From contig JAUCBJ010000668.1 of assembly GCA_032718475.1 (NCBI GenBank), positions 62,001 through 126,000 on the forward strand: DNA of 64,000 nucleotides, written 5' to 3'. Shown piece after piece: positions 15,546-58,956 of this stretch. Position 1 is the first letter of the stretch. Every line of letters begins with the position of its first letter. The position numbers and the translations under genes are program-made. The notes under the pieces are model-generated. The model did no database searches. It was not told the origin of the DNA and saw only the letters and a program-made list of their open reading frames with translations. Source of the stretch: Nemertoderma westbladi. Lineage: Eukaryota > Animalia > Xenacoelomorpha.

Positions 15546-15774
15546 TGCTCTTAGTAAATGCCAGCTTATATTTTCTGCAGGCTAAACAATTGGGTACCAA
15601 ACAGAAGGCAGTAAATATAAATATTAAATAAAATCGAAAAACTGAACTAATAAAAATCAACATTTGAAATAAACATCAGACTGCTTTGAAAGTTCATCTG
15701 TATTAAATGTTCATTTCTCCAATAACAGACACAGACGAGGGTAACTTCCTTCTACAGACACGGACCAGCAGACC

Positions 15775-15942
15775 CTAGAGAATATCGCCCTCTTGTGCCC
15801 GTTTAACAGTTTCCAACATATAAAGTAATCCGGAACTATCGATGGAAGCAAATCTTGTGAAATCTTGAGAGTTCAGTAGATATTTAGTGAAACGTCCGTT
15901 CACGTAGAATGTTTGGAGTAAAGTCCCGTCGCGCGTCCAAAA
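15775..15942 (-). CDS. APAF1: Apaf-1 terminal exon (not in ORF track)
   Basis: ccttag|TTT TGG... gives FWTRDGTLLQTFYVNGRFTKYLLNSQDFTRFASIDSSGLLYMLETVKRAQEGDIL*, matching the Apaf-1 C-terminus. TAG at 15777-15775. Confidence 0.9.
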   Translation of the reverse strand, partial: FWTRDGTLLQTFYVNGRFTKYLLNSQDFTRFASIDSSGLLYMLETVKRAQEGDIL

Positions 15943-18900
15943 CTAAGGTAATAAAAACATTATGTGATAACAAATGTAATGTGAATGTAAATGTAAACAT
16001 AATGTAATGTAATAACATAATATTTAAATTTATTATCACTAACAACGAATTAATCACCAAATGTACACCATGTCCTAGAATATAGTGTTCATATTTAGGT
16101 ACACCCCCCCCCCCCCCCCCCGCCTCCCCAATTTTTCTACAAATCTTTATGAGATTGCATGAAATTTGAAACAGGGATAGTTTCACCTCCCGACCACTGA
16201 CTGGGTGAGCCAGAATTTTTATTTTCGCTTTTAATCTTTAGCTACCAGTGTTTGGAATGGGTGTCTCCGTCGATATTGCACTCGTCGTACTGCAGTTAAT
16301 CTTCAACCTCATAGTGATTTGTTGGTGTCACTGCCTTTAGAAAGCTGGCTTAAAGGTTGCATTTGCAACCACTGCAGGCCATTTTATTATATTTAATAAA
16401 TAAACCATGTTCTAGAATAGCCACTTACTAAAGTAAATTTTTTTTATTTGACTATTTTTGGCCACATTTTCACGAGTTTTGAGGGATCAGATTATGGGTT
16501 CATTTTGTTCGGGATATAACGAATTTATTCAAATCCACTTCCAATTTTAGGATTTTCTTTACTTTTTCTCAGATTTCATTCTTTAGTAGATCATTCACAA
16601 AGTCTCCAAAATTAAATAAATAAAGTATGAAATAAATAAATAATAATAAAATGAACTGCGAATTAACAAATAACAGTAAATGGGTGAAAATACAGAAAAG
16701 TTACCAAATTGGAGACATTCTCGTTTCTCACGTTTCTCAAAACCCAACATATGATATATATTCTGAAAGCTCAGAGTGTGTAGAATTTAATGAGAGTATT
16801 GACCGACCTTAAATATGATCTGTAAAAAAAATATACTGCTTCTCCCTTCCTGTCCACTGCCTGTAACCATTATTTTAATAGGATAATTGGTTACAGGCGT
16901 GGGACATTTGTCCTCCTGTAACCTTCCATGTAAATGTAATGAGAGCCTGGTTACAGGCGGTTACAGGTGGGGGGACGTTTTATGGTATGCATTGGTTTAC
17001 ACAGGCGATGGAAATATAGGAGGGTACGTGTATTATATACCATTAGAAAGCTTGTCTGGCGGGTGATCTAAATATGTTCATGGTTCCTAAGATCAAACAA
17101 ATTAGCATTTTGCAGTTCTGCGTTTGCATACGATGGTTACAGAGATGGACATTTATGGTCGGACACCCATGTTTGGAGATACTTATCAACCTGTAACTTC
17201 CAAGCTATTAAATTAATTTGATTAATTTTTTTCCATAATTCTGCAGCATAAATTGCTGCGATTTCAAATATAATTAATTCGAACGTAAAAAAGTAAAGGG
17301 GGTTTTTACCTCACAATTCTCTTGGAGGACAATTTTTAGCTATAAATTAAAAACAGGCTTTGGTGGCTCATCAAGTTCCGTGTATCTATGTAATCATGTA
17401 CACTGTTTGACTGCAAATTTATTGGGCTTTCTAGTGGTATATAAAACTTATACACTATCATAATTCCAATACGCCATTGAAACGATGAAATGATCAGTTG
17501 CATTTTTCCTATATTTATGATATTATTATTGATGTGGTGACCAATATTGTTTAGAATTTAAGGCATCGTATGCACTTTATTTTATGAAATTTCGATTAGT
17601 AGAAGTGGAATTATACATTGTCCAACATTTATGGAGCTTTTTGGCAACTTTTCTGTGTTTTCACTCAAATAACTTTTGGATAGTGATGAGATACAAACTA
17701 ACCTTAATGTTGTCGCCGGTAGACACCAGTCGAGAGCCGTCAGCATTAAAGGCAATGTCCGTAACCCAGGCGTTGTGACGACAACAGGTACCCACTAACG
17801 TCCAGCCCTTAACCAACCAAACCTTCACGCGACCAGTGTCGTCACCGGTTGCTAGGTAACGGGAACAGGGGGAGAACCGACAACTCCGTACGCAGTCAGT
17901 GAACCCCTGGAGAACAGTGTGTTGGGTGTCTGTGTCAGGGTTCACTATATAGGCGCAGCTGTTGGTGGAAGTAACGCAGACATGTGATTGGTTGGGAGAT
18001 ATTGCGCAGGATGTTAAGTAATCGTCAACCACTTGGATATCACGAAGCAGTTTCCCAGACAACACATCCCATATCTGTGGAATTTATTTACTCATATAAT
18101 ATATGTTTAATGGTGTCTGTCTGTCTGTATGTATGTCTGTCTGTCTGTTTTATATTGTATGTTTGTGAGTAACGTTTGTTTGTCTATATGTCTGTCAGTC
18201 TACCGGTATATTTGCCGTCAGTCCATAATGTATGTTTGTTTAATGTCTTTCTGCCTATGTTGTCTGTTTATCTAGATTGTCTGTCTGTCTATATTGTCTG
18301 TTTGTCTATATTGTCTGTTTGTCTATATTGTCTGTTTGTCTATATTGTCTGTTTGTCTATATTGTTTGTCAGTCTATATTATGTCTGTAGGAACGGTATG
18401 CTTATATCCGTGTGTTAATAAAACAAAATAAAATTATATTCGTTCTGTTGCTATGTGATGAAATGACATAAATTATAGGTTAACTTACGAGTAAGCGACC
18501 ATCATTAGCAATGCTTAAAACTCTTCTATCGTCGGTAAAACTCTTGACTTGGTTCACTGCAGATGTGTGGCCTTCCAAGCTCCACTTCAAAGAGATTTCA
18601 TTGGTTGACAACGACCACACACTTATCAGTTTATCGTTACCGGCTGTAATTAGCCAATCACAGGAAGGCTGAGTAAATACTAAACAGTATAGATTGTGAA
18701 CGCTACGATGGTTTCCTTCACAGACTCTCACATTCCTCAGATCTTTAGTGTTGTGATTGTAAATCTGTAAAAAGTACAAAAAAAACATCGCAATGATTCA
18801 ATTTCATGTAAATAAATTCAAGTTAGATTGTAAATAAATACAAGTTAGATTGTAAATAAATACAAGTTAGATTGTAAATAAATACAAGTTAGATTGTAAA

Positions 18901-21900: not shown

Positions 21901-24900
21901 AGTTAGATTGTAAATAAATACAAGTTAGATTGTAAATAAATACAAGTTAGATTGTAAATAAATACAAGTTAGATTGTAAATAAATACAAGTTAGATTGTA
22001 AATAAATACAAGTTAGATTGTAAATAAATACAAGTTAGATTGTAAATAAATACAAGTTAGATTGTAAATAAATACAAGTTAGATTGTAAATAAATACAAG
22101 TTAGATTGTAAATAAATACAAGTTAGATTGTAAATAAATACAAGTTAGATTGTAAATAAATACAAGTTAGATTGTAAATAAATACAAGTTAGATTGTAAA
22201 TAAATACAAGTTAGATTGTAAATAAATACAAGTTAGATTGTAAATAAATACAAGTTAGATTGTAAATAAATACAAGTTAGATTGTAAATAAATACAAGTT
22301 AGATTGTAAATAAATACAAGTTAGATTGTAAATAAATACAAGTTAGATTGTAAATAAATACAAGTTAGATTGTAAATAAATACAAGTTAGATTGTAAATA
22401 AATACAAGTTAGATTGTAAATAAATACAAGTTAGATTGTAAATAAATACAAGTTAGATTGTAAATAAATACAAGTTAGATTGTAAATAAATACAAGTTAG
22501 ATTGTAAATAAATACAAGTTAGATTGTAAATAAATACAAGTTAGATTGTAAATAAATACAAGTTAGATTGTAAATAAATACAAGTTAGATTGTAAATAAA
22601 TACAAGTTAGATTGTAAATAAATACAAGTTAGATTGTAAATAAATACAAGTTAGATTGTAAATAAATACAAGTTAGATTGTAAATAAATACAAGTTAGAT
22701 TGTAAATAAATACAAGTTATATTGTAAATAAATACAAGTTATATTGTAAATAAATACAAGTTAGATTGTAAATAAATACAAGTTAGATTGTAAATAAATA
22801 CAAGTTAGATTGTAAATAAATACAAGTTAGATTGTAAATAAATACAAGTTAGATTGTAAATAAATACAAGTTAGATTGTAAATAAATACAAGTTAGATTG
22901 TAAATAAATACAAGTTAGATTGTAAATAAATACAAGTTAGATTGTAAATAAATACAAGTTAGATTGTAAATAAATACAAGTTAGATTGTAAATAAATACA
23001 AGTTAGATTGTAAATAAATACAAGTTAGATTGTAAATAAATACAAGTTAGATTGTAAATAAATACAAGTTAGATTGTAAATAAATACAAGTTAGATTGTA
23101 AATAAATACAAGTTAGATTGTAAATAAATACAAGTTAGATTGTAAATAAATACAAGTTAGATTGTAAATAAATACAAGTTAGATTGTAAATAAATACAAG
23201 TTAGATTGTAAATAAATACAAGTTAGATTGTAAATAAATACAAGTTAGATTGTAAATAAATACAAGTTAGATTGTAAATAAATACAAGTTAGATTGTAAA
23301 TAAATACAAGTTAGATTGTAAATAAATACAAGTTAGATTGTAAATAAATACAAGTTAGATTGTAAATAAATACAAGTTAGATTGTAAATAAATACAAGTT
23401 AGATTGTAAATAAATACAAGTTAGATTGTAAATAAATACAAGTTAGGACACGGACCCCCCCCCCCCCCCCCCCAATTTTTCTACAAATCTTTATCATATT
23501 GTTTGAAATTTGAAACACAACAAGTTCACAACAAGTCCGTGGTTGTTACCATGAAGCCGGAATTTTCGATTTTGCCTTTAAATTTTATTTATAAGCGTTT
23601 CAAAAAAGTGTCTTTTGCGATATCGCACCCTCTGTATCATTGACATTCTTCACTTTAGTCGTAATTTTTTCACATCAATAGAAAGCTTGCGTTGCAAGGA
23701 TTCCAAATATGTAGCAATATCTGAATTTCATTGAGAAACAGCTGAGAAATAGGCGTTCAAAGATTGCAAGAATTATTGTTCACTGCAGGCCATTTATTCT
23801 ATTTAATAAATACACAATATTCTAGAACGTGTTATTTATTTTATGAGTTGGTAGGCAACAACGGTATGCCTATACAATATCTATATTGCGTAGCTAATCA
23901 TACATAAACAAATTGTTCCAGAATATTGTGTATTTATTAAATAGAATAAATGGCCTACAGTGAACAATAATTCTAGCAATCTTTGAATGCCTATTTCTCA
24001 GCTGTTTCTCAACGAAATTCAGACATTGTTACATATTTGGAATCCTCGCAACGCAAGCTTTGTGTGAAAATTGATGTGAAAAAATTACGACTAAAGTGAA
24101 GAATGGCAATGATACAGAGTGCGCGATTTCGCAAAAGACACTTTTTTATAACGCTTATAAATAAAATTTAAAGGCGAAATCGAAAATTCCGGCTTCATGG
24201 TAACAACCACGGTGAGTTGAACTAGTTGTGTTTCAAATTTCAAGCAATATGATGAAGTTTGTAGAAAAATTTGGGGGGGGGGGGGTCCGTGTCATCAGAA
24301 AATGACACTATAGTACGGGTCATGGTGTATAGATATACGTTTGGGCTGAAGGGCCACTTTTGTATATCAAAAGTGGCCCTATTGCGACTTGGGGGGTATT
24401 AAAAAGTGGCCCTTTAGCCCCTTTTTGGCCCTTTAGCTCGAAACCGCAAACGGGCTTGGATGGCCCTTTGTGTATACGGTTCCTTTAAAAAGTTATGCAC
24501 CTTCATTTTATTACTAAATGAAAACATAATTTTCGGGCCACTTACCAAAATGTATAAAATGGAATTAGGGCCAAAAAAGTCAAAAGGGCCAAAATTTGCC
24601 AAATTGGCCCTCTTCCTGTCTGGAATAATATATCATTGGCCCGAACTGAGCTTATTATATAGTGAAGAAAGAAAGGGCCATAACAGGCCCTATTTGATGT
24701 GACTTCATAACAAATTTATCAAATTAGTTGAGAAGGAAACGAGCCGAACTGAAAATGAGATAAATAACAATAGGGCCATTATACAGTGGCCCTTTTAAAT
24801 CCAATTTGATCCTACAAATATACTGAGCTGAGAATTTGAGTGGCCCACTTGTTTCAAAATTGATTTATTAAATAAAATGTCCCGAAGAAGGGGCCACTTT

Positions 24901-42900: not shown

Positions 42901-45900
42901 CAATCATGTCGACTGCTAATAAAGACACAACGACCAACTCAGAATCCACTGACGAAACTAACAATGCGAACGCTAAAGATTTCAGCTCAGCTGCAAACCG
43001 CAGACACCGACAACGAGATACAGAAGATGGTGTGGCACTCGAGACGCAAGGAGCGGTTAATTAAACCGGACACGGAGTCCACCGCACTCATCCGTCCAAC
43101 GGATTACCAATGGGACGAGTTCCCGAGAGATAAACACGGAATCCCGTTGGACACGCCACGTTACCGCCACTACAAACGCGTCAAATACACCGAGATACTC
43201 ACGTCCCGTTACCATGACTACACGGGCCCGCGACCAATGGACATCCTGCGTCTATGCGCGGTCGCTTCCGGGGTCCTATTGGTCGTCTGCATCGGAGTCT
43301 CCGCGTGGCGTTACGAGGACGCCAAACGAAAGTTCGACGCTAGTATCGCTGCTAACTGTTGCCACGACGACCAGGAATACAAACGAGAATTCATTAAGTT
43401 TTACAACGCGAATAAAGGCGACCCTAACGAGGTCCACCTCATCACTTACGGAATCCTCGCCTACCATTGGTCAGTTAAACTATTTAGCTATGGATTTGAG
43501 GCTATAAAACGCGGGACATTTACGGAACGATTCGATCCATCCCGATGGGATCCCTGGAACTTCTCCCGGCCGTCGCCGCACCCGGAACTCCGACCAGGCA
43601 GCTCGTGGTCTCGCCTCCTGCGTCACCTGTTAGTCCCTCGTCTCCTCCGCTCTAACCACACAATCTTCCTCCTCGTCGTCTCTCTCCTCTTCCATGAGGT
43701 TATGCAACAAGCACCGCCGGTGTTGGATAAGTTCCAGGCCCTCCAGGTGTACCTGTCTGCGACGGTTGTGGCGCAGTGTGGGGGGGAGTGTTTCCGCTAC
43801 ATCCGTCGGACCTTTCCGCCGCGTTTAGGTGTCTGCGGCCCCGCTCCGGGGATGCTCGCTCTCGTCGCCACCGTTGCCTTCCTCCGACCGGACGTCCAGC
43901 TCTGGATCCCCGCCTTCAACCGGAACTACCTGAGTTACACTCCGGTTCCAGCCACCGACCGCCCCTTGTGGCGCTACTTCGACGCCACCGAGTGGCGGTG
44001 GTACCCGACCGCCGGGACCGCATTGAAGGCCGCCGTTGCCACGGAGACCGCGTTGTGTCTCCTAGCAACCACAGGACGTCCCATACACAATCTCTTCTAC
44101 ATAAAGTCCGCTATCCGCAGTCTGCACTCCAGTCACGCCTCCAGACTAACCGCTCTCCTATTCGGGGTCTTCTACGTGGTATTCTTCAGTGACTTTTGTG
44201 CTAATCAACAGGTTACCATAGTAACGCAGTACGATAAACTTAGAGACAGTTTCTCGAACTATAGAACTAAACCGAGTCTATTTAATTCCCATTAGCTTGC
44301 AATTTGTCTTTATCGCAGTTTTACTATAATTTTTAGTTAATGAATTATCGAAGCAAAATGTATACGCAAGATAAAGATTTCCGCTAAGATTATCGACTAA
44401 TTCCTAGCGCCTTTTTTTAACCAGTTACCCGATATGGGTTGGCCATTGAGATAATAGATTATTATAAAATTATCCATAGCATCAAATATGAAAAATAGCA
44501 TTACCAAATTATTCAATTATTATATATTTATATATATATTTAAACATTGAATATTAAATGCAGTTTCATGATTTTATCTTGTGGAATTATTGTTGCTAAT
44601 GATGCTACTATGACCACGACTAACAGCTGTGTGGAGCCGAGCTAGGGTGCCGTGGATCCTTTTATGCTCTAAACGTGTTATTATGAAACTTATGTATCAG
44701 AGTCAATAAATAACGTTTATTCGGTCCAGCTCAAATTATTTAGAAATTACCCTTCGTGATGTTGTATTTGGTTGGTCTGGGACTTTGCGATGCAAAAGAT
44801 ATAACCCTGCGAGGATTGGAGATTGTGCAGCAATGTACCAAGGTCTACCTGGAAGCCTACACATCTATATTGAACTGTGACGTCACAGAATTAGAAAGAG
44901 TCTATAAGAAGAGTATTACCTTAGCAGGTAAAACTGAACGCCCTAAAAATTCCAATTAAATAATTAACCAAATAGGGTCAATTGGTATCATATTTAATGT
45001 GACAAAAATAGACAAAATCGTCAAATCTATACAATCTACCTAATGACCAAATGTCACTAACTGAAGATTTTAACAAAGTGTGGGATAGAATTCAAGGTAA
45101 AAACAACAACAATAACCCTACATTTTTATATTTTTTTCACATGTAAAATATCTAATTATCAACAATTTACGTTCACAGATCGGGAGTTTGTTGAGCAAGG
45201 TAGCGACTCCATGCTCCGAGAGGCTACCACCGAGGACGTTGCGCTGCTAGTGGTAGGAGACCCACTGGGTGCCACAACACACACTGACCTTCTACTCCGA
45301 GCCAGGGAGCTCAAGGTCCCATACACACTGGTACACAATACCAGTATACTGACCGCGGTTGGTTGCTGTGGGTTACAGCTGTACCGGTACGGCGAGACAG
45401 TTTCGCTACCTCTCTGGACTGACCAATGGAAGCCGACCAGTTTCCACGACCGACTTGTAGCCAATCACACGCGAGGACTGCACACACTCTGTCTGCTCGA
45501 CATTAAAGTTAAGGAGCAGAGTGTAGAGAACCTAATTAAGGGTCGAAAAATATACGAGCCTCCAAGATATATGACCTCACAACAGGCTGCAAGACAGATT
45601 CTAGAATCGGCAGTAGAGAGGGGGGATGACGTCATTACACCTAAGTAAGTCCTGTTGTACGACATCATCATATATTGGTCTCGCAAATAGAAAGAAGAGT
45701 TATATTTGATTAACTTTTGGTCGATTTGTAAAACAATAGATAGAATATAATTTAACTTTTACGATTAAATAAATTCCCATAATATTTTTACATTATTCCT
45801 TTCTCGTTTCAGCACTCTCGCCATTGGTCTCGCACGGGTCGGTCTACCTGATCAGAAGATCGTGTTCGGTAATCTAACTCAACTATCAGACTACGATATG

Positions 45901-48900
45901 GGAAAACCTTTACACTGTTTGGTTATTCCAGCACCAGAACTTCACGATTTAGAACTACAATATATTGAAGAATATAGAATAAGTAAATTAGGTTAATAAA
46001 AAGATTTACATCCCAGAATTTATTGTAATTTTTCAATTAACACTTTCAGACATTGATTAATTTAATGGTTAAATACATGAAAGTTAGTTAAGTACATACT
46101 CAATAAGTTAAAGATTTACTTTCAGTTTAGATAGAGGTGTGATGTGACATTGTAATGAGTTTCAATGTATATTGAAGGCAATATTATTCCAGGGTCGGAA
46201 ATTGGAATAATTTGAGGCAAATATAATTATTTCTACGTAAAATCAGACAGTTTATATGAAATCGATTCAATTTTAAACTTCACTTTGATTTCTGAGTAGA
46301 TTGAAGTCGTTCATACAAAGGGTTCATCAATCAATATATTTCTGTAAGTTGTTGATTTGTTTTTGAACCACTGCGATCGACTGAGACCACTGTGTAATAC
46401 GCGGGAGGTGCGACGGATACCTTACTCACTGACTCGCACCTTCTCTGCCTTCTCGCCGACTCTTCTCGGTTTCTTTTGAAGTACATCAGGAAGAGGACGA
46501 CAGGCACGGCACCGAACGCAATGAGGAGACAACTAACCACCATGATGACAACCAATCGCAACTTCTGCGACGAGACATTATTCGCCTCAACTATAGCGAA
46601 ACGAATAACCACACTGTCGACTTTTTTATTTCCTAACGTTTTCCCATTGTTATCCGCGTGGCTACCCGGCCTGACTTCCGCAACGTAAACCCCGTAATCT
46701 TGCTCCGAACTCACCGTTATTCTGCTCGACTCCCTGACGACTGTGCGGTTCCCACGAGGCCCCTCGATCGAGTAAACCATGTCGTAATCTTTCACAGTGC
46801 GAGTGAACCCGGGCCGAGTCACGGCTTGCCATTCTAGATTCAGCACCTCGCCGAACTGCACCGCTAAAGTGACACCGGAGAACACGACAACGGACCCGTT
46901 GCCACGGGAGACAACCAACTTGAAGACCTGAACGAACAGCTTTTTGACGTTGGTGTACTCTTCACCAACGCGTTCAGTACAGATTAACATCTGACTGAAG
47001 TACAACTTGGTAGTGAGATGTTTATCAGTAGTAATCTGTTCTCCTAACTCGTTGATCCAAATAAGTTCACTCTCACGTCGCCTTTCATCCAAGTCGCATG
47101 TATCCAAATCGCTCACGAAACCGGGTTTACGCAGGAATACTAGAATCTTTCCGACTTCCAATTTCGTCACATTCGCTTTGTGGTACAGATCCACGGAGCA
47201 AGAATCCCGCGAGTGGACACAGGAGAATTCAACACCTCTGTAGTGAGATTCATTGGTAATAACCTCGGTCACGTATCGAACACCTGATTGGTCGTTATCT
47301 GGCAGTTTTGTCCAATTAGCAATTGGCACGCCTTCCAGATAGCCATGGACTGTTTGCCCCGTATCCTGTGTCTCATGTTCGAGGTTTAGCAGTCCGCATT
47401 CGAGTTTCACCGTCTGATTAGTAGTAAAGTGGCAAAACTTAGAGGAACTTTCTCCATCCACGCTACAACTGCATTGTAATGCACTGCCGTTAGCCCTCAC
47501 TACACCCACAAACAGGGCCACCAAAATATCAATTAGTGCTATCACTTTCATAATAGGCTCGACATGAATTTGTCTTGGCCTTTGTATTTTTATAGTTCCT
47601 TAAATTGAATTACAAGTCGACATTCTAGAACCTACAATATTGGAGTAGCTGTAGCAACAATTCATAGCGTCAATAAATAATCTACTAACTGTTGGGTTTA
47701 GGTAGAATAATTCTTCCTGATTCTGCGTCACATATCTTTATAGAATAATCATCACCACCAGATATAAATAGAGATCCGTTATGAGAGAACCTGGCGCAGT
47801 GAACTGGTCCATCGTGGTGCTTGGTTGATAGCTGTAGGGGTTGCGATGGGTCTCTGAAATAATTAATTTAGTCATTAATGAAGTATTGAAAAGTAAGTTT
47901 GTAAGTAAGTTGTAGTTTACACGACGGGCAATCTTATTCAAAACCTAATAAAAATATTTAATTGAATTTGAAAGCAAACCAAACAGCATTTACATAAATG
48001 TGTGTGTTTTAGCAAGGACTTAATTTATAATAATTATTCATAACATTGCACTTAATTCCACTGTAGTTTTTTTAAGGGCTGATTTTTCTCGTTTTCGTTG
48101 ATTTTAATACTGAATGTATTCAATTTTTTCTTCGGGCATATGCTACGTTGGCCTTCATATTTTCGGTAATTAGTGATTTTTTTCAATTGTGGCATTAGTG
48201 TATTTAATGGTAGCTACTACTTAAAAAAACACACAAATGCGTTGATAGTAAATAACATAACAAATAAATATTATTTGGTGCTGCTTCACGTGTAGATTGA
48301 CAATCCACTAAAGTGAAAGTTTCTCTGTGGAATATAGAGGGTTACCAAACTATCACAACTCACATTCCCGAGAATGAACTCCTGGATAACTCCGATGTAC
48401 TTCTTTTTACAGAAACTTTATGTTGCAACATGAATGCAGCCTCAAATAAAAGTCATTATTCGTTTATAGAACCAGCAGTAAAACCACGCCGCGGCCGACC
48501 GCATGGAGGACTAATGATATTATGTAAACCTGAACTGAATCCGTCTTTTGTGAAATCTAAAGAATCGTATGTAGTAATTAAAACACTGATTTACTATTTC
48601 TTGGTATTTTACTTTACTCCAAACTCTCCAGTCGAAGAGATTCTATTGACAGTAAATGAGGCGAGGCATTATCATATACATACCCAGTGCTATCGATTGT
48701 TATTGGAGGCGATTTCAATTGTCGGCTTGATGCTGTGTGCATTATGACGGAAAGGAAATAGAGATCTGCAATAAATATGAGTATCTTGGGATTGTTATGC
48801 AACAGTCACTGTCGTTTTCAAAGCACATCGATCAGAAGAAGAGGAAAGCTTTCTCTGCAATAGGATGTCTAAGACACTTGCCACTTATTTCCATCGAAAC

Positions 48901-51900
48901 TGGGATGAAGATAACCACTCCGAAAATAGACCCAATGTTCTGCTACGCTTTTCAAGAAATAGTCCCCTTTTTCACTCTGACGAACCTCAAACAACTGGAT
49001 AAAGTGAAATTCACCTTCCTAAAACGTCAACTTGGTTTATCAAAATACTCCTCGTCCACCTTAGCTATGAAGATAGTTGGTTGTAAATCATACGTAGAAA
49101 ACCTAAATTTGAAATATCCGTGAATTTTTGATCAAACGGTGTTAGAACAATATAGGTTAAATAGACGACAGAGGAGGAATCGTTTAGCGACAACAACTTC
49201 TTAGAAGGACCGGCATTTACCTCGCAGGGTTGGAGCGCCCCGGGCCAAAGGAACCGGCATAGTATTATGAGGGCCACCGCCCATGGCTTCCACTGGAAAC
49301 TATGTAGTGACATAACGCCATTTCACGAACTGGGCCCAACCTGTTAGGTAAATACTGTGGAGGCAGTGCGAGTGAGAGATATCACTTATTTAGCTGTGGG
49401 TCCTGTCCAGCTCTCTCGGCTCTGGGAAACTCTTAAGTGAATGAATACAGACCCCCCCCCCCCCCCCCCTCCCCTCTTTTTAACATTTTAGAACCTATTT
49501 TATATTTTAAATTTAAAATTAACTTATACAATCCTAATATTTTAAATACTCTGATTTTAATTTAAATTTAACTATACTCTGATAAATGTCATTTTAATGT
49601 AATAAAGATTAAATTTACCCCGTACGGGGGTGTATATTTCTAAAAAAAAAACATAATAATATACACAAATAACATAACAAATAAATATTATATTGTAGAA
49701 TATTCTTCTTGCTTTTAGAGGTAAATAAATTGAAAATTCAATTTATAATTCAGTAAATTAATTATTTTTTTAACAATTTAATTAACAATTTGTCTGGAAT
49801 TGTGAACATGCCACACAGCTGTACATATTAATAGTACACAAAAAAACACACCAATAATTCACGTTTGGGGGGCTTACTGCTTTAAATTAAATTAATTTTT
49901 TAAACCCTCTATAGCTGGTGTTTGCGGTCATTTTGCGCCATAATCCCCCCCCCCCCCCCCCACCCCCCGCGATTGGCTGTAACACAAAACAGCGGTAGCC
50001 GTATGCTAAGCTTGTTTTACTTCGTAGTTCGCCCCTAAAACACCTAGCCATTTATGACTGTTACCTAGCAACCTAAACACGGGGGAAATTTAAAACGTTT
50101 ACGACGTTACCAATTAGGCAAACTACAGTACCGGTACTGGTTATGCCTGACTGAGACTGACCAGACAGCCAACTATCCGACCAACGCTGAGTTGTGCAAA
50201 CACCCCGAATAATTAGCAACAATAAAATCATTAGTAGATTACAATGAATCACCACCGCAGGTTGGAGGTGTGCGGCACGCGGCCTCCGTACCGGGACGGA
50301 CGCCGTGAACGCGCCGTCAAGGTGTTTACCGTCGCCGACGAATCTCTCTACCTACTGGTCCATCGTGTCCCTACAGTAGCGCCTATAGAGGACCTCCTAA
50401 AACTCTTTGGTAAATTTGGCAACATCTCGCACCACGAACGGAGAGAACAAGAGTTATCCACCACAGACAACGAGTTCACACAGACGTTCCTTATAAAGTT
50501 CTCGAGTTTACTCGGAGCTGGGTTCGCTCGGCGACGACTCGACGACTTTAACTTCTTCGGTGGATTCATCCACGTCACTTACGCCCCGGAACTGGAGTCT
50601 CTTGCAGAAACGCGCGATAAATTCTTAACTCGTTCTCGTCGGGTTGTCCATCACATAGAGCGGCTCCGTCGGGAAAAGGCGGGAAATTTGAATAGCGGAG
50701 TTCGAGGGAAGAAAATAACTGGAGAAGGTGGTCGGTTAATCTCGAGAAAACGCGATAAAAATTCATCGGTATTGAACAAAAATGTTCCTTTGCAACGTCC
50801 GACAAATACGTCCGACTCTACGACCGATTCTAATGCACTGGAAATAGCGGAAACATCCGAAGTATATTCCCGCAAGGAAACATCCTCTCCAAGGACTCCC
50901 ATTCCGCCAATACTTGATGTTGCACTTAATCCTCGAAACAATGTAAACCCTCCGGCTATTGGTCACGCTGTCGACCAATCAAAGTACTCCGCCTACCACG
51001 GCGGTGATAGACTATTGACAAGTAAAATCCAACCTAAAGCTTTTACGCTTACCGAAAACAATTCGGTTACTATTGTTACTGGAAAGGTTAAGAGACCTAA
51101 TAAAGTACAAAAGAGTAATCGGGGTGGACACAATAGGGGGTGTTGGAGCTGGAGGAAACGGGAGGTTTCGGATCACAAGATAGATCCCAACCAGACAGTA
51201 GGAAAGTCGGACAAAGTGTCAGACCCCAATCGGTCTATCGGAAAGTCACACAAAGTGTCAGACCCGCGTCTATTCCTACCACGTATTTTATCTCTCAGCA
51301 GCAGGAAACACCCATAGAAATAGTCACTTATTTTATGTGAATATCGAAACATTACAGTTACACGGCAGTTTGAATGGGTTAGAGGTTATGTGATATTTAT
51401 TTGTTATTACAGTTTAGCTTATAAAAAATAGTGGAGCGAGCCACGAAAGTAAGCGAGCTTATTATATGGCTACCACTATCTCAACCTGGGTGTCGTGTCT
51501 ATCGGTCGGTTTGTCTGTATGTCTAATCTTTGAAATGTTCTCCTCAGGAACACTCCATTTCCTTAAAGTAGTAGGGTTCTATGAAAAAAAATTCAGATAT
51601 CGAAAGATTCCGTACAGACAGACTTCTACAGGTCGTCTGTCGGCAGCAATGGGGGTTACATGTCTAAATATTAAATATCCTCCCTTTTCTTTACTTTTAA
51701 TCCGTTCAAGCAGAATGCGTCACGATATATATGTACTACCTAATGAAGTTGATAATACATTTCATACCTCATGGTGTGAAGTAGCACTTTTATTACGTAT
51801 TACAGTCGGGTAGGTTGCTCTCGTCTATATTAATATGTGAGTGACCCCAAAAAACTTATGATTTATAAAACGAGTTATACTGTAACATAAGGTGTCCGAT

Positions 51901-54900
51901 ATTTCGCTACATGCTAAATATTCTGCACGAACCTATTGCACCAGTCTAGATATATTTTTTCTCATCCGCACTAACCTATTGCACCAGTCTAGATATATTT
52001 TTTCTCATCCGCACTAACCTATTGCACCAGTCTAGATATATTTTTTCTCATCCGCACTAACCTATTGCACCAGTCTAGATATATTTTATCTCATCCGCAC
52101 TAACCTATTGCACCAGTCGAGATATATTTTCCTCATCCGCACTAACCTATTGCACCAGTCTAGATATATTTTTCCTCATCCGCACTAACCTATTGCACCA
52201 GTCTAGATATATTTTATCTCATCCGCACTAACCTATTGCACCAGTCTAGATATATTTTATCTCATCCGCACTAACCTATTGCACCAGTCTAGATATATTT
52301 TATCTCATCCGCACTAACCTATTGCACCAGTCTAGATATATTTTTTCTCATCCGCACTAACCTATTGCACCAGTCTAGATATAGTTTTTCTCATCCGCAC
52401 TAACCTATTGCACCAGTCTAGATATATTTTTTCTCATCCACTAACCTATTGCATCAGTCTAGTCTAGATATATTTTTCCTCATCCACTAACCTATTGCAC
52501 CTGTCTAGATATATTTGTTCTCATCCGCACTAACCTATTGCACCAGTCTAGATATAGTTTTTCTCATCCGCACTAACCTATTGCATCAGTCTAGATATAT
52601 TTTATCTCATCCGCACTAACCTATTGCACCAGTCTAGATATATTTTTTCTCATCCGCACTAACCTATTGCACCAGTCTAGATATAGTTTTTCTCATCCGC
52701 ACTAAGCTATTGCACCAGTCTAGATATATTTTTACTCATCCACTAACCTATTGCACCAGTCTAGATATATTTTTTCTCATCCGCACTAACCTATTGCACC
52801 AGTCTATATATATTTTTCCTCATCCGCACTAACTTATTGCACCAGTCTAGATATATTTTTTCTCATCCGCACTAATCTATTGCACCAGTCTAGATATATT
52901 TTTTCTCATCCGCACTAACCTATTGCATCAGTCTAGATATAATTTTTCTCATCCGCAATAACCTATTGCACCAGTCTAGATATAATTTTTCTTATCCGCA
53001 CTAACCTATTGCAACAGTCTAGATATATTTTTACTCATCCGCACTAGCCCATTGCACCAGTCGAGATATATTTTTCCTCATCCGCACTAGCCCATTGCAA
53101 CAGTCTAGATATATTTTTACTCATCCGCACTAGCCCATTGCACCAGTCGAGATATATTTTTCCTCATCCGCACTAACCTATTGCACCAGTCTAGATATAT
53201 ATTTTTTCTCATCCGCACTAACCTATTGCACCAGTCTAGATATATTTTTCCTCATCCACACTAACCTATTGCAACAGTCTAGATATATTTTTACTCATCC
53301 GCACTAGCCCATTGCACCAGTCGAGATATATTTTTCCTCATCCGCACTAACCTATTGCACCAGTCTAGATATATTTTTCCTCATCCACACTAACCTATTG
53401 CAACAGTCTAGATATATTTTTACTCATCCGCACTAGCCCATTGCACCAGTCGAGATATATTTTTCCTCATCCGCACTAACCTATTGCACCAGTCTAGATA
53501 TATTTTTCCTCATCCACACTAACCTATTGCAACAGTCTAGATATATTTTTACTCATCCGCACTAGCCCATTGCACCAGTCGAGATATATTTTTCCTCATC
53601 CACTAACCTATTGCACCTGTCTAGATATATTTTTTCCCATCCGCACTAACCTATTGCACCAGTCGAGATATATTTTTTCTCATCCGCACTAAGCTATTGC
53701 ACCAGTCTAGATATATTTTTCCTCATCCACTAACCTATTGCACCTGTCTAGATATATTTTTTCCCATCCGCACTAACCTATTGCACCAGTCGAGATATAT
53801 TTTTCCTCATCCGCACTAACCTATTGCACCAGTCTAGATATATTTTTACTCATCCGCACTAGCCCATTGCACCAGTCGAGATATATTTTTCCTCATCCGC
53901 ACTAACCTATTGCACCAGTCTAGATATATTTTTCCTCATCCACACTAACCTATTGCAACAGTCTAGATATATTTTTACTCATCCGCACTAGCCCATTGCA
54001 CCAGTCGAGATATATTTTTCCTCATCCGCACTAACCTATTGCACCAGTCTAGATATATTTTTCCTCATCCACACTAACCTATTGCAACAGTCTAGATATA
54101 TTTTTACTCATCCGCACTAGCCCATTGCACCAGTCGAGATATATTTTTCCTCATCCGCACTAACCTATTGCACCTGTCTAGATATATTTTTTCCCATCCG
54201 CACTAACCTATTGCACCAGTCGAGATATATTTTTTCTCATCCGCACTAAGCTATTGCACCAGTCTAGATATATTTTTCCTCATCCACTAACCTATTGCAC
54301 CTGTCTAGATATATTTTTTCCCATCCGCACTAACCTATTGCACCAGTCGAGATATATTTTTCCTCATCCGCACTAACCTATTGCACCAGTCTAGATATAT
54401 TTTTCCTCATCCACACTAACCTATTGCAACAGTCTAGATATATTTTTACTCATCCGCACTAGCCCATTGCACCAGTCGAGATATATTTTTCCTCATCCGC
54501 ACTAACCTATTGCACCAGTCTAGATATATTTTTCCTCATCCACACTAACCTATTGCAACAGTCTAGATATATTTTTACTCATCCGCACTAGCCCATTGCA
54601 CCAGTCGAGATATATTTTTCCTCATCCGCACTAACCTATTGCACCAGTCTAGATATAATTTTCCTCATCCGCACTAACCTATTGCACCAGTCTAGATATA
54701 TTTTTCCTCATCCGCACTAACCTATTGCACCAGTCTAGATATATTTTTCCTCATCCACACTAACCTATTGCACCAGTCTAGATATATTTTTCCTCATCCG
54801 CACTAACCTATTGCACCAGTCTAGATATATTTTTCCTCATCCACACTAACCTATTGCAACAGTCTAGATATATTTTTACTCATCCGCACTAGCCTATTGC

Positions 54901-56474
54901 ACCAGTCGAGATATATTTTTCCTCATCCGCACTAACCTATTGCACCTGTCTAGATATATTTTTTCCCATCCGCACTAACCTATTGCATCAGTCTAGATAT
55001 ATTTTTCCTCATCCACTAACCTATTGCATCAGTCTAGTCTAGATATATTTTTCCTCATCCACTAACCTATTGCACCTGTCTAGATATATTTTTTCCCATC
55101 CGCACTAACCTATTGCATCAGTCTAGATATATATTTTTCCTCATCCACTAACCTATTGCACCAGTCTAGATATATTTTTCCTCATCCACTAACCTATTGC
55201 ATCAGTCTAGTCTAGATATATTTTTCCTCATCCACTAACCTATTGCACCTGTCTAGATATATTTGTTCTCATCCGCACTAACCTATTGCACCAGTCTAGA
55301 TATATTTTTCCTCATCCACACTAACCTATTGCAACAGTCTAGATATATTTTTACTCATCCGCACTAGCCCATTGCACCAGTCGAGATATATTTTTCCTCA
55401 TCCGCACTAACCTATTGCACCAGTCTAGATATATTTTTCCTCATCCGCACTAACCTATTGCACCAGTCTAGATATATTTTTCCTCATCCACACTAACCTA
55501 TTGCACCAGTCGAGATATATTTTTCCTCATCCGCACTAACCTATTGCACCAGTCTAGATATATTTTTCCTCATCCGCACTAACCTATTGCACCAGTCTAG
55601 ATATATTTTTTCTCATCCGCACTAACCTATTGCATCAGTCTAGATATAATTTTTCTCATCCGCACTAAGCTATTGCACCAGTCGAGATATATTTTTTCTC
55701 ATCCGCACTAACCTATTGCATCAGTCTAGATATATTTTTTCTCATCCGCACTAACCTATTGCATCAGTCTAGATATAATTTTTCTCATCCGCAATAACCT
55801 ATTGCACCAGTCTAGATATATTTTTCCTCATCCACTAACCTATTGCACCAGTCTAGATATAATTTTTCTTATCCGCACTAACCTATTGCAACAGTCTAGA
55901 TATATTTTTCCTCATCCACTAACCTATTGCACCAGTCTAGATATATTTTTTCCCATCCGCACTAACCTATTGCATCAGTCTAGATATATTTTTCCTCATC
56001 CACTAACCTATTGCATCAGTCTAGTCTAGATATATTTTTCCTCATCCACTAACCTATTGCACCTGTCTAGATATATTTTTTCCCATCCGCACTAACCTAT
56101 TGCATCAGTCTAGATATATATTTTTCCTCATCCACTAACCTATTGCACCAGTCTAGATATATTTTTCCTCATCCACACTAACCTATTGCAACAGTCTAGA
56201 TATATTTTTTCTCATCCGCACTAAGCTATTGCACCAGTCTAGATATATTTTTCCTCATCCACTAACCTATTGCACCAGTCTAGATATAATTTTTCTCATC
56301 CGCACTAACCTATTGCACCAGTCTAGATACATTTTTTCATCATCCGTTAGTTGTAATGCTCTGCGCTTCGCTTGCTCATATAACTTTGAACTTCTATCGG
56401 AAAGAAGACCCAGCTGAATGATATCCGGTGGGTGTTTCTGTACTAACAGATGACTGTTTACGCTCACCATAGTC
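15775..56474 (-). CDS. APAF1: Apoptotic protease-activating factor 1 (Apaf-1), 3' part: end of HD2 plus WD40 propellers, 11 exons in window, about 790 aa; 5' exons lie outside the window
   Basis: Exons 56474-56310, 47853-47690, 41328-41084, 40429-40237, 37962-37758, 29606-29390, 29249-29118, 28650-28405, 18764-18489, 18074-17703 and 15942-15775 all have AG/GT ends and compatible phases. The joined protein aligns collinearly, by eye, with vertebrate Apaf-1 (e.g. PDIIQLGL...MYLDWCN vs PNIVQLGL...LYLEWIN; VLKRDLDGV vs MLKQEVDVV; CVRSCRFS..LATGDDTG vs CVRCSAFS..LATGDDNG; QTFYVNG...GLLYMLET vs QTFYTNG...GILYILQT). Confidence 0.92.
16063..16420 (+). mobile_element. MITE family B arm (TA-CACCATG terminus, C-run subterminus)
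   Basis: tacaccatg...atatagtgt...C-run...aatttttctacaaatctttat...gaaatttgaaac...cactgcaggccattt.attatatttaataaata, shared with 23446-23830. Confidence 0.6.
17703..18074 (-). CDS. APAF1: Apaf-1 WD40 exon
   Basis: ccacag|IWDVLSGKLL...RYLATGDDTGRVKVW...HNAWVTDIAFNADGSRLVSTGDNIK|gttagt; 372 nt, phase 0/0. Confidence 0.9.
18489..18764 (-). CDS. APAF1: Apaf-1 WD40 exon
   Basis: tttacag|IYNHNTK...LITAGNDKLISVW...GHTSAVNQV...NDGRLL|gtaagt; 276 nt, phase 0/0. Confidence 0.9.
18807..23446. repeat. Highly homogeneous 22-bp tandem array (tgtaaataaatacaagttagat), about 210 copies, intronic
   Basis: Period 22, with only a handful of single-base variants over about 4.6 kb. Confidence 0.97.
23446..24329. 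mobile_element. MITE family B: foldback of about 880 bp (arms about 380 bp, spacer about 85 bp); left tip replaced by the 22-bp array
   Basis: gacacgga-C-run-aatttttctacaaa...cacaatattctagaac is mirrored by gttccagaatattgtg...tttgtagaaaaattt-G-run-tccgtgtc. The right end catggtg-TA suggests TA-targeting (Tc1/mariner-type) termini. Confidence 0.8.
25858..26017. repeat. Short imperfect foldback of about 160 bp
   Basis: aattacgtattacatgg...aaaaag...agaac...ttttttca vs tgaaaaaaagttct.ctttttttcccatgtaataagtaatt around a ctcgctggcgctcgg centre. Confidence 0.55.
26626..27945. mobile_element. Non-autonomous EnSpm/CACTA-type element with internal tandem repeats of about 175 bp
   Basis: TA-CACTGataaaa ... 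tttt-CAGTG-TA, many aacc(g)cggtt subterminal motifs, and 3-4 tandem units (aaaaccggaatttaattaac...aaaccatggtttcataggttttaaaacctt) at about 27175-27750. Confidence 0.65.
28405..28650 (-). CDS. APAF1: Apaf-1 WD40 exon
   Basis: tttcag|IWDAMELQPNTTHTVLKRDLDGVLDDGKVLVGAGDNHYRFQVLEG...FAYGCDTGTIK|gtaagt; 246 nt. Confidence 0.9.
28693..29049. mobile_element. Internally deleted MITE family B copy
   Basis: tacaccatga...atagtgtcattttcagatgacac ... atcagaaaatgacattat...tcatagtgta. The interior matches 23605-23815. Confidence 0.6.
29118..29249 (-). CDS. APAF1: Apaf-1 WD40 exon (not in ORF track)
   Basis: atatag|IRIWDAVSGKIISTLNMHTSWVYSVAFSHCGRKIISASDDETVM|gtgagt; compare HLSWVHGVMFSPDGSSFLTSSDDQTI. Confidence 0.9.
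29390..29606 (-). CDS. APAF1: Apaf-1 WD40 exon
   Basis: ttgtag|G-NMVSNLCWSPDSSTIAS...TGDASTVQSLAFHPSGRSLAGGLNSFS|gttagt. Its phase 2 start fits the CAT AG| donor at 37758. Confidence 0.9.
30156..31910 (+). mobile_element. 5'-truncated, frameshifted non-LTR retrotransposon (RTE-like reverse transcriptase)
   Basis: ASGVDGVPPE, PVPKKG...FRGISLISIAAKLYNRILLNR, FVDFFKAFDAV, GILQGDILAPFLF, LDFADDL, FCYLGS, VLLYGS motifs. (AGT)n 3' tail. Flanked by TAACCTAT at 30148-30155 and 31911-31918 (likely TSD). Confidence 0.9.
32112..32397 (-). repeat. 3' LTR
   Basis: Direct repeat of 35788-36073, preceded on the minus strand by the polypurine tract. Confidence 0.95.
32441..34096 (-). CDS. Gypsy pol C-terminal part: partial RNase H plus integrase
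   Basis: ELELLAVTWAL...IVTDHRPL...DALSR (RNase H); LHASHQG...CGLC (HHCC); SADLF / TDGGPQF / SNGHAEAAV (D,D,E). Confidence 0.93.
   Translation of the reverse strand: MVELELLAVTWALRKCRIFLSGLADFEIVTDHRPLVSILDHHTLDEVENPRLQRLKERTMAYSFHTIWAAGKSHCIPDALSRAPVADPTAEDLADELDLVYSPATVSALATSLSSSTHLVDSLIISLKDAASLDPTYQELLHAVQSGFPIKPMGALLPYWKLRDKLSWDTGLVLYDNRLVVPMGMRPGVLQRLHASHQGVERTKRRARLAVFWPNIGEDIRHMVDSCGLCQESRPSQPREPLLQEDQPSRPFEDTSADLFDVSGRSYLVYTCRFSGWPCVTEWRSPPTASAVTRALSREFSATGVPIRLRTDGGPQFDAHDFRAFAQCWGVSLSPSSPYNPSSNGHAEAAVKAMKNLVKKSGFLTDAFNQGLLEWRNTPNSTGLSPAQIVFGAPLRSLVPAHHTTYAPQWCTIAEVADRRSDVKATERAAHDQHTRGLPRLYLGTTVLLQDPNTKRWDRTGTIVQVGPHRDYKIKLASGRVYRRNRRFLRPATPPHPTPTLEPTQPPQTQVSTDPTTTTAPQPERRVQFAPEPLPLPQRRSQRKIRPPDYL
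34118..35761 (-). CDS. Gypsy gag plus aspartic protease
   Basis: QRPGETVDEY gag motif, two zinc knuckles (CGNCGGTPHTTRSDC, CLNCQRRGHLQRMC), and protease LPDTGSD...ILLSWRTC. Confidence 0.9.
   Translation of the reverse strand: MTLMAYSHDSTLPATDDRDGTLSESDVSATVSPKTHHTRKLSYDELFRALTDHQRVADDQHRRETEEYRRVVEEQRREDARRADERLAALIEALLPRAAIPLAPPTMPTAGDHGPNPRHPPRVIDTRALERLDADIRLPEFRTWRRQWEFFVRQHRLTSYPVDEQTAALLGTFTTRLARSVEVNCALDLSDPTLAPSTVLDALQVYLRGQSNLALDYVNFINRSQRPGETVDEYRIALEDLGAELCTHCRSHQIAVRFVAGLLCAETKQKLLARTPFPDLPEVIDISRAEEAASREHANVRIGGPTSSVYRATSRELPRDNGRRRGSHRSVDRQCGNCGGTPHTTRSDCPAYEVICLNCQRRGHLQRMCRSSAPAATHGKVGLLRTHQITDSTSHGTRPERPVPAPLVSVTISGARGSCTLLVLPDTGSDVNIMGLTLVGRFGEQPDRLHESAQQVEAANGLSLHIGGSLPLTISFQNRSLSTSFLISREYDGILLSWRTCTELGILRYHDAVPQPLMATAMAIQHPQTPVQSMRPLPPPLVLNICL
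35788..36073 (-). repeat. 5' LTR
   Basis: Direct repeat of 32112-32397, followed on the minus strand by the TGG-initiated PBS. Confidence 0.95.
37758..37962 (-). CDS. APAF1: Apaf-1 WD40 exon whose 3' end seeds the 58-bp array
   Basis: atctag|GC-SITVIDL...AHFDAVKDVSFSPNGNTIASCSVDGTVKVWAPQSVCLELLLTYTGH-AG|gttagt; phase 1/2. Confidence 0.9.
38363..38744. mobile_element. piggyBac-type MITE
   Basis: TCAA-ccctatctggcccggg ... cccgggccaaataggg-TTAA: CCCT/AGGG termini and a TTAA-like target (left copy mutated). Confidence 0.65.
39690..39968 (+). mobile_element. Second 3'-terminal fragment of the RTE-like LINE at 30156-31910
   Basis: Near-identical to about 31627-31905 (gctttgcag.acattgctttcgccgtgaggaccagccagtgcataatc...gccgatcctagtagtag). 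Confidence 0.9.
40237..40429 (-). CDS. APAF1: Apaf-1 WD40 exon
   Basis: ttgcag|LNLDSINIKK...IISKVQFHPSNSNQLVCCSGN-G|gtaagt; phase 0/1, fits both neighbours. Confidence 0.82.
40806..40985 (-). mobile_element. Degenerate tRNA-derived SINE with Deu/Nin-type central domain
   Basis: Minus strand reads ggatcgagccc (B-box-like) followed by gtccactcagcattt..ttccatgtggtcgataaaattagtaccag, resembling the Deu/Nin core as I recall it (ggtcgactcagcctttcatcc...gtcgataaaatgagtaccag). Confidence 0.6.
41084..41328 (-). CDS. APAF1: Apaf-1 WD40 exon
   Basis: gttttag|GT-DVRICHDNTVLCCTFSHDDAKFASCGSDNTVRIWDSSTGELI...DG|gtgagt; compare AHEDEVLCCAFSTDDRFIATCSVDKKVKIWNSMTGELV. Confidence 0.9.
41708..41930. repeat. 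41-bp tandem repeat, about 5 copies
   Basis: Unit tctttagatgttggtactgatggagagctggccgtggaggg. Confidence 0.92.
42874..44295 (+). CDS. PARL-like mitochondrial rhomboid, predicted catalytically inactive, intronless, 473 aa
   Basis: Collinear with PARL motifs: SAWRYE (AIWQYE), QVYLSATVV (AVYLSAGVI), CGPAPGMLALVA (LGASGAIMTVLA), TAGTALKAAVATETA (TAGNALKAIIAMDTA), HASRLTALLFGVFY (HAAHLGGALFGIWY). Basic, acid-free N-terminus resembles a mitochondrial presequence. Confidence 0.8.
   Translation: MMLILHARLQSCRLLIKTQRPTQNPLTKLTMRTLKISAQLQTADTDNEIQKMVWHSRRKERLIKPDTESTALIRPTDYQWDEFPRDKHGIPLDTPRYRHYKRVKYTEILTSRYHDYTGPRPMDILRLCAVASGVLLVVCIGVSAWRYEDAKRKFDASIAANCCHDDQEYKREFIKFYNANKGDPNEVHLITYGILAYHWSVKLFSYGFEAIKRGTFTERFDPSRWDPWNFSRPSPHPELRPGSSWSRLLRHLLVPRLLRSNHTIFLLVVSLLFHEVMQQAPPVLDKFQALQVYLSATVVAQCGGECFRYIRRTFPPRLGVCGPAPGMLALVATVAFLRPDVQLWIPAFNRNYLSYTPVPATDRPLWRYFDATEWRWYPTAGTALKAAVATETALCLLATTGRPIHNLFYIKSAIRSLHSSHASRLTALLFGVFYVVFFSDFCANQQVTIVTQYDKLRDSFSNYRTKPSLFNSH
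44759..45996 (+). CDS. DPH5: Diphthine methyl ester synthase, 3 exons (44759-44927, 45179-45644, 45813-45996), about 272 aa
   Basis: MLYLVGLGL.DAKDITLRGLE...VYLEAYTS, ADREFVE, LVVGDPLGATTHTDL, QLYRYGETVS, GLHTLCLLDIKVKEQ, IYEPPRYM, GLARVG..DQKI, DMGKPLH.LVIP. GT-AG introns in phases 1 and 2; AATAAA overlaps the stop. Confidence 0.96.
46331..47551 (-). CDS. Orphan type I single-pass membrane protein (signal peptide, Cys-containing beta-rich ectodomain possibly Ig-like, TM helix, PPxY tail), 406 aa
   Basis: Hydrophobic N-terminus MKVIALIDILVALFVGVVRA, multiple N-x-S/T sequons, TM LVVIMVVSCLLIAFGAVPVVLFLMYF followed by KRNR, and a PPAY motif. TATAAAA lies about 40 nt upstream on the minus strand (47594-47588). 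Confidence 0.75.
   Translation of the reverse strand: MKVIALIDILVALFVGVVRANGSALQCSCSVDGESSSKFCHFTTNQTVKLECGLLNLEHETQDTGQTVHGYLEGVPIANWTKLPDNDQSGVRYVTEVITNESHYRGVEFSCVHSRDSCSVDLYHKANVTKLEVGKILVFLRKPGFVSDLDTCDLDERRRESELIWINELGEQITTDKHLTTKLYFSQMLICTERVGEEYTNVKKLFVQVFKLVVSRGNGSVVVFSGVTLAVQFGEVLNLEWQAVTRPGFTRTVKDYDMVYSIEGPRGNRTVVRESSRITVSSEQDYGVYVAEVRPGSHADNNGKTLGNKKVDSVVIRFAIVEANNVSSQKLRLVVIMVVSCLLIAFGAVPVVLFLMYFKRNREESARRQRRCESVSKVSVAPPAYYTVVSVDRSGSKTNQQLTEIY
47690..47853 (-). CDS. APAF1: Apaf-1 first WD40 exon (not in ORF track)
   Basis: atttcag|A-DPSQPLQLSTKHHDGPVHCARFSHNGSLFISGGDDYSIKICDAESGRIILPKPN-A|gttagt. Phase 2/1 exactly bridges 56310 and 41328; compare PHTDAVYHACFSEDGQRIASCGADKTLQVFKAETG. 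Confidence 0.88.
48275..49666 (+). mobile_element. Internally deleted non-LTR retrotransposon remnant (APE endonuclease N-part joined to post-RT region)
   Basis: SLWNIEG...LLFTET...GRPHGGL...YFTP and frameshifted GGDFN (APE), then IEICNKYEYLGI (RT thumb). A-run at about 49642-49651. 25-bp direct repeat aaataacataacaaataaatattat at 48250-48274 and 49667-49691. Confidence 0.75.
50244..51317 (+). CDS. RBM48: RNA-binding protein 48 (RRM; minor-spliceosome-associated), intronless, 357 aa
   Basis: HH...VC.TRPPYRDGRR.RAVKVFTV..ES.YLLV..VP ... EFT.TFLIKF ... RRRLDDFNFFGGFIHVTYAPELESLAETRDK matches the RBM48 N-terminal domain; the C-terminal half is low-complexity. Confidence 0.92.
   Translation: MNHHRRLEVCGTRPPYRDGRRERAVKVFTVADESLYLLVHRVPTVAPIEDLLKLFGKFGNISHHERREQELSTTDNEFTQTFLIKFSSLLGAGFARRRLDDFNFFGGFIHVTYAPELESLAETRDKFLTRSRRVVHHIERLRREKAGNLNSGVRGKKITGEGGRLISRKRDKNSSVLNKNVPLQRPTNTSDSTTDSNALEIAETSEVYSRKETSSPRTPIPPILDVALNPRNNVNPPAIGHAVDQSKYSAYHGGDRLLTSKIQPKAFTLTENNSVTIVTGKVKRPNKVQKSNRGGHNRGCWSWRKREVSDHKIDPNQTVGKSDKVSDPNRSIGKSHKVSDPRLFLPRILSLSSRKHP
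51930..56345 (-). repeat. 43-bp minisatellite made of the last about 34 nt of an Apaf-1 exon plus its donor and first intron bases; about 100 copies with higher-order sub-patterns
   Basis: Plus-strand unit ctcatccgcactaacctattgcaccagtctagatatatttttt. The rightmost copy is coding (DEKMYLDWCN-AG|gttagtgcg). Confidence 0.95.
56310..56474 (-). CDS. APAF1: Apaf-1 HD2 exon whose 3' end seeds the 43-bp array
   Basis: ctttag|G-TMVSVNSHLLVQKHPPDIIQLGLLSDRSSKLYEQAKRRALQLTDDEKMYLDWCN-AG|gttagt; compare SLNGHLLGRQPFPNIVQLGLCEPETSEVYQQAKLQAKQEVDNGMLYLEWIN. Confidence 0.9.
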
Positions 56475-58925: not shown

Positions 58926-58956
58926 TTCCTAAACGAGTTACCGGTACACAATCACG

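Follow-up and report, generated by a model that had tools for sequence, protein, structure and literature searches.

Minisatellite arrays across splice junctions of an Apaf-1 gene are probable mirage-type repeats of unusual copy number and density

Why should long tandem repeats lie at several splice junctions of a single gene? In the window, that is, the whole stretch of 64,000 nucleotides (nt) analyzed here, Tandem Repeats Finder (TRF) confirmed the three kilobase-scale arrays described in the original prediction (51925-56346, 37803-30025 and 18807-23446), and together with our gene model it places all of them within one gene on the minus strand. The identification of this gene as Apaf-1 was borne out by a Pfam match to APAF1_C in the frame 56270-56539 (E 1.4e-8), by WD40 matches in five other frames, and by a model of 11 minus-strand exons (A to K) with GT-AG borders, whose single frame of 793 amino acids (aa) is 29% identical to residues 551-1257 of fish Apaf-1 (E 2e-89). 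The closest homologues of exon J are likewise fish Apaf-1 proteins, with at most 44% identity, and a profile built from 30 of the 120 proteins of the Apaf-1 search found no N-terminal Apaf-1 exon in 56.5-64 kb.

Splicing was followed in short-read contigs of four (X1 to X4) out of eight listed sequencing runs, none of which is recorded as RNA; they were compared over the stretches 37700-41700 and 15500-18880 (exons C, D, E, I, J, and K). The window itself may derive from X1 and X2, and a single sample gave both X2 and X3. A contig of X4 (record 25; 4,302 nt) carries the record label "DNA?" and is read as RNA because it skips introns at CT..AC ends and its joints of 414 and 1,760 nt have zero depth in X1-X3. 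This spliced contig agrees with the model from exon C to exon K, to the base except for letters that fit either side of a joint and including the summed length of exons F, G, and H; on contig coordinates, 1,758 nt precede exon A. Thus, the exon boundaries proposed from the sequence could be checked against a transcript at three places, the donor of the 58-bp array (37758/37757), the triplicated acceptor (41328), and acceptor 18764, and they agreed at each. Contigs hide rare isoforms, and a low use of downstream donors could escape notice in such data.

Table 1. Features of the window with their positions, strands, and supporting evidence.
Feature	Position	Strand	Evidence and remarks
ATG5	6414-7214	-	Single uninterrupted coding frame
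Exon K (last) with 3' UTR to contig end	15614-15942	-	X4 contig 3974-4302; coding 15942-15775, stop ends at 15775
Exon J	17703-18074	-	X4 joints skipping 414 and 1,760 nt, CT..AC ends
Exon I	18489-18764	-	X4 contig (record 25) 3324-3601; 2 letters fit either side
22-bp minisatellite, 211 copies (TRF 210.9)	18807-23446	-	205/211 identical; CTAAC and T-rich tract; without AG
Foldback (palindromic) element, ~850 bp	23447-24293		Self-match 87% over 864 nt; adjoins far end of 22-bp array
Exon H	28405-28650	-	Frame; F+G+H total of 595 nt agrees with X4 contig coordinates
Exon G	29118-29249	-	Frame; F+G+H total as for exon H
Exon F	29390-29606	-	Frame; F+G+H total as for exon H
58-bp minisatellite, ~36 copies	29985-37810	-	Pieces 37810-36074, 32111-31911, 30155-29985; decayed, longer terminal copy
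LINE fragment inside 58-bp array	30156-31910	+	RVT_1 match; inserted at donor motif of a unit
LTR retrotransposon inside 58-bp array	32112-36073	-	Integrase and RNase H matches; identical 286-bp LTRs (0 mismatches); 5-bp target duplication
Exon E	37758-37962	-	X4 contig (record 25) exits DNA at 37757, first donor
Exon D	40237-40429	-	X4 contig (record 25)
Exon C	41084-41328	-	X4 contig (record 25) 2088-2332; entry at 41328
Triplicated acceptor, exon C	41312-41410	-	Copies at -38 (14/14 letters) and -65 (12/14, CG for AG); units bounded by TACG
PARL-like rhomboid	42874-44295	+	Protein-atlas lead
DPH5-like, three exons	44759 to ~45990	+	Nested in Apaf-1 intron
422-aa frame	46331-47599	-	Likely membrane segment; nested in Apaf-1 intron
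Exon B	47690-47853	-	Frame and homology
RBM48-like	50244-51317	+	E 1e-29
43-bp minisatellite, 103 copies	51925-56346	-	TRF; ~35 nt exon end and 8 nt intron start
Exon A	56310-56474	-	Helical domain end; APAF1_C E 1.4e-8; frame open with first donor only

The neighborhood of these exons is crowded. Four genes are nested in the introns A-B and B-C (41329-56309), three of them seemingly without a coding intron. ATG5, outside the arrays, is 63% identical to its best match, the protein of B. floridae, and 62% identical to that of a sea anemone, and from this one gene the host would be an animal that is not a cephalochordate. Upstream of exon A, at 58933-63385, two long plus-strand frames of 577 and 354 aa, which belong to no clear family, flank an array of 0.9 kb that is strongly hairpin-forming (z about -10 to -12); this region looks, from its sequence, like a mobile or virus-like element inserted in the intron, and a protein-atlas search with the frame 58933-60666 gave no usable name.

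The unit of the 43-bp array had been described as an exon end followed by AG/GTTAGT and repeated about 100 times, which is what we find: the last 36 nt of exon A are the founder copy, and the first unit carries this donor. Judged from the open frame and homology, 56310/56309 is the splice site of exon A, and only one of 80 exact donor copies, the first, keeps the frame open. The repeated donor itself persists in part, with 80 of the 103 words exact, 13 of GC-type, and 6 without the +1 G. The copies fall into 36 unit variants arranged in repeating higher-order blocks.

The same description, an exon end with AG/GTTAGT in about 36 copies, holds for the 58-bp array, whose unit comprises 53 nt from the end of exon E, the founder, and 5 nt of intron. 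TRF resolved this array into four stretches of 16.8, 13.2, 3.5, and 2.3 copies; it is real but not continuous, being split by an LTR retrotransposon and a LINE fragment that inserted later than the array formed. Again one of the exact donor copies (34 in this case) keeps the frame open, and again it is the first; the X4 contig leaves the DNA at this very donor, although a second unit is present in the compared stretch. When units are split on the exon side, the donor hexamer is without variants while 22 of the 52 other columns vary (about 0.04 by hand arithmetic); units split on the donor word itself would bias this count. Middle units are 93% alike, and the terminal copy near 29985, at the far end, is decayed and longer. 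The last 38 nt of exon E are identical to a common variant of the array, which, set against the decayed terminal copy, suggests that homogenization extends into the coding end of the exon.

Regarding the mobile elements around this array, the short-repeat tail of the LINE resembles its target word. An element end at 39687-39968 is similar to the tail of this LINE and occurs in very high copy, with a summed contig depth above 1 million in X1 compared to about 24 for single-copy sequence.

A third junction duplicated in place is the acceptor of exon C, where ttgttttag/gtgacg had been reported as triplicated. All three copies exist, and the X4 contig splices at the last, exon-side one (41328); the AG is kept in two of them, whereas the copy farthest upstream reads CG. 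Across the model, all 10 donors conform to GTNAGT and five of them to GTTAGT. The word common to both donor arrays is thus simply the donor that this gene uses most often. The original reading of the arrays as independent events is supported. A telomere-like interpretation of GGTTAG was rejected, as donors F and J also contain GGTTAG and are not amplified.

The 22-bp array is a different case. It was predicted to consist of CTAAC and a U-rich tract abutting an acceptor, and CTAAC, a T-rich tract, and 211 copies are indeed found; yet the array stops 42 nt upstream of the exon I acceptor at 18764, with its last CTAAC, a putative branch point, at -62, and its unit contains no AG, so that it does not span the junction. 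We give a nearly even chance to an origin without any link to splicing, namely instability beside the foldback element of 850 bp, with the proximity to the acceptor being coincidental. The array directly adjoins this palindrome, whose outer left end appears to be missing, and besides the gap and the lacking AG, 21% of such windows contain a looser branch-point word, YTRAY. On the other hand, just 24 of 2,139 background windows contain CTAAC, and a word of 10 letters in the unit recurs at the beginning of exon I, although this is also true of 16 of 1,672 matched windows and 15% reach the gapped score. The shared word is a weak hint that the array might possibly be an acceptor duplicate that has lost its AG; it is likely a minisatellite of the ordinary intronic sort, close to an acceptor, and its status as a fourth junction case is doubtful.

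How far, then, do arrays and junctions coincide beyond chance? Exact copies within 300 nt were found for 3 of 21 junction-spanning 14-mers, compared to 17 of 1,500 random intron positions (1.1%) taken outside the kilobase arrays (binomial P 0.0016). Likewise, 3 of the 8 intronic arrays with a period of at least 15, a count that leaves out one array inside the RBM48 frame, cross a junction; with neutral target lengths assumed at 21.5-6 kb, P ranges from 0.001 to 0.03. The amplification claimed for four of about 20 junctions thus reduces to three of 21, with a local excess that comes from one locus, hand-picked because of the pattern. None of the four junctions of the nested DPH5-like gene is duplicated, which brings the total to 3 of 25, and a search of the other 18 Apaf-1 junctions for older, decayed duplicates gave none above background. 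The intron-side ends of both donor units lie at +5 to +9, which under a flat model has a post hoc P of about 0.008. In the literature searched, mostly papers available without subscription, we found no study that asks across a genome whether arrays are enriched at splice junctions.

Arrays away from known junctions also occur. The 0.9-kb array at 60988-61879, upstream of exon A, is at no identifiable junction; with 1,758 nt of contig preceding that exon and no N-terminal exon found in 56.5-64 kb, it is probably still within the Apaf-1 gene. A 21-bp array of 55 copies (14397-15541; 1.1 kb) starts 73 nt beyond the end of the Apaf-1 contig and is likewise at no junction. At 41708-41929, an array of 5.3 copies of 41 bp has plus-strand units with TTTAG/ATG, about 950 nt before the PARL-like start, and could, from its sequence, have arisen by duplication of the acceptor side of an untranslated exon. 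We also considered hairpin formation as the common cause of the arrays and rejected it: the 43-bp and 22-bp units fold no better than base shuffles, and only the 58-bp unit (z -2.1 to -2.7), the 21-bp unit, and the upstream 22/52-bp units fold better.

Taken together, the arrays are quite probably junction-spanning minisatellites of the "mirage" type, which form by local duplication, expand, and are tolerated as the exon-side copy stays in use. What we observe of this course is that the units derive from the exon edge, that the first donor alone keeps the frame, and that the X4 contig is spliced from the first 58-bp donor and to the last acceptor copy. One small local duplication across the border is likely to have seeded each unit of 20-60 bp, as suggested by the short words shared by the unit ends, which are 4 nt long in the 58-bp unit (TGGG, found at both ends) and in the acceptor triplet, and 1 nt in the 43-bp unit. 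Unequal exchange and conversion would then likely have expanded the arrays, in which the middles are homogenized and the far end has decayed. Splicing at the exon-side site, with any other choice running into a stop, is the likely reason why the arrays are tolerated; the first donor may be chosen as in human F7, and mis-spliced RNA, if any, would decay via its premature stops. The arrays are likely harmless and without function.

Tolerance alone predicts no excess at junctions, and yet 3 of the 8 arrays cross one, both donor units stop within the same few intron positions, and the 58-bp hexamer is invariant. A possible, but clearly more tentative, addition is that splice sites themselves seed the duplications: pausing or RNA-DNA hybrids at the border would lead to nicks, and repair would duplicate the sequence up to a point just past the U1 site. 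This idea concerns only the seeding step and is compatible with the mirage label. The proportion of duplicated junctions relative to background speaks for it, as do the intron-side unit ends at about +8 and at +5 to +9, and the occurrence of such repeats in several lancelet genes (PMC3087553, PMC3902484), whose mechanism is called unclear in PMC3087553. It is weakened by the choice of a single locus for its pattern, by the undisturbed junctions of the DPH5-like gene, and by the 5 of 8 intronic arrays, along with the 0.9-kb and 1.1-kb arrays, that lie at no known junction. Moreover, the unit of human F7 ends at +33 (PMC1557585), so that +5 to +9 is not universal, and short shared words are enough for two of the three seeds. 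The fuller version, in which donors of this genome seed duplications with one breakpoint at +5 to +9, just beyond where U1 pairs, and the arrays in turn homogenize the coding end of the exon, strikes us as rather improbable.

Selection for decoy splice-site arrays had also been proposed. We regard it as very unlikely, also in a form where the arrays would act as U1/U2 sponges and so adjust the splicing of Apaf-1 or prevent premature cleavage. The many exact donors in both arrays and the invariant hexamer of the 58-bp unit would fit such a role. However, donors of the 43-bp array decay: 19 of 102 units depart from GT (+1 G in 6, +2 T in 13), compared to a mean of 5% in the other columns. In addition, homogenization explains why copies are intact, the 58-bp array contains two mobile elements, and the X4 contig shows plain splicing.

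Reverse transcription of splicing intermediates followed by reinsertion at the locus, another of the proposed origins, finds a possible source in the active-looking retroelements within the gene, but the units cross the cleavage site unbroken and end 5-9 nt in the intron and 36-53 nt in the exon. Since the junction itself would be the end point of a lariat or a free 5' exon, copying of such intermediates is largely refuted, and we give it hardly any credence.

That the arrays are assembly artefacts is the least credible reading of all: the 205 of 211 identical units mean that the exact length of the 22-bp array could be wrong, but the 43-bp array has its 36 variants in higher-order blocks, the 58-bp array has insertions with target duplications, and unit depth is high in all three DNA runs (X1-X3). 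Contig depth over the 58-bp unit was 791, 1703, and 656, compared to 22-66 for single-copy sequence, and over the 22-bp unit 3321, 926, and 2661, compared to 20-29; it is a rough measure that gives no copy number. These values are tens to a hundred times the single-copy depth, yet far below the tens of thousands on neighboring mobile elements, a pattern that fits real, locus-specific arrays.

Read as mirage-type repeats, the arrays make this gene a large natural test of donor choice, in which some 80 identical copies come after a single true donor, a number several times that in the human cases described. The gene is a conserved apoptosis gene, outside the named lancelet and vertebrate examples. 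If junction excess and breakpoints at +5 to +9 proved true across the whole genome, DNA damage linked to splicing could be tested as a source of minisatellites and of intron growth; if donors do seed duplications, mirages would gain their missing mechanism and intronic repeats would drive coding change. Without a genome-wide pattern, the locus would be a striking yet ordinary example.

The original prediction knew of no named element class with this structure, but such a class exists, as three reports show. In lancelet globins and Adh3, minisatellite-like tandem duplications across exon-intron boundaries were named "mirages"; they leave splicing undisturbed, and their origin was called unclear (PMC3087553). 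PGBD5, with two of them, and troponin C were added later (PMC3902484); units range from 10 to 160 bp, and the globins are BflGb6 and BflGb9 (PMC3087553, PMC3902484). In humans, donor-spanning VNTRs are described in five genes (F7, 6-16, CBS, LMNB2, and PDGF), where the most upstream donor is chosen; the unit in F7 intron 7 is 37 bp long, with 4 nt of exon and 33 nt of intron, and is present in 5-9 copies (PMC1557585). Finally, the Rogers model, as cited in PMC3087553, explains intron gain by tandem duplication of a proto-splice site.

The junction-spanning Apaf-1 arrays are probably of this known kind, with unusual copy number and density. A real boundary is spanned, according to the X4 contig for the 58-bp array and the acceptor triplet and according to frame and homology for the 43-bp array, and the head-to-tail copies keep the splice signal in both donor arrays (80/103 and 34 exact) and in two of the three acceptors. 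Splicing is undisturbed at the 58-bp donor and the acceptor triplet in one contig, in which rare isoforms are invisible, and concerted evolution with diverged ends is seen in the alike middle and decayed end of the 58-bp array and in the variant blocks of the 43-bp array. The narrow sense of the term, with a cephalochordate as host, would not apply, as far as ATG5 tells.

Like the lancelet mirages, the Apaf-1 repeats are tandem, border-spanning copies at donors as well as acceptors, many but not all of which keep their splice signal; splicing is normal, the middle is homogenized and the cluster ends are diverged, the unit sizes fall within 10-160 bp, and, as in PGBD5, one gene has several. In contrast, the donor arrays have 103 and 36 copies rather than the 2-7 given for lancelet globins and PGBD5, the host is apparently no lancelet, and one array is split by two mobile elements. 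As in the human VNTRs (F7, 6-16, CBS intron 13, LMNB2, and PDGF), the first unit lies across the border, further donors follow in its repeats, and splicing takes the most upstream one; yet Apaf-1 units consist mostly of exon (35-53 nt, with less than 10 nt of intron) where F7 has the reverse, and there are up to 103 copies compared to at most 25 pseudo-sites listed for the human genes. With the Rogers model, as it is cited, the arrays share tandem duplication across AG/GT, but here the copies lengthen an existing intron instead of creating a new intron or exon.
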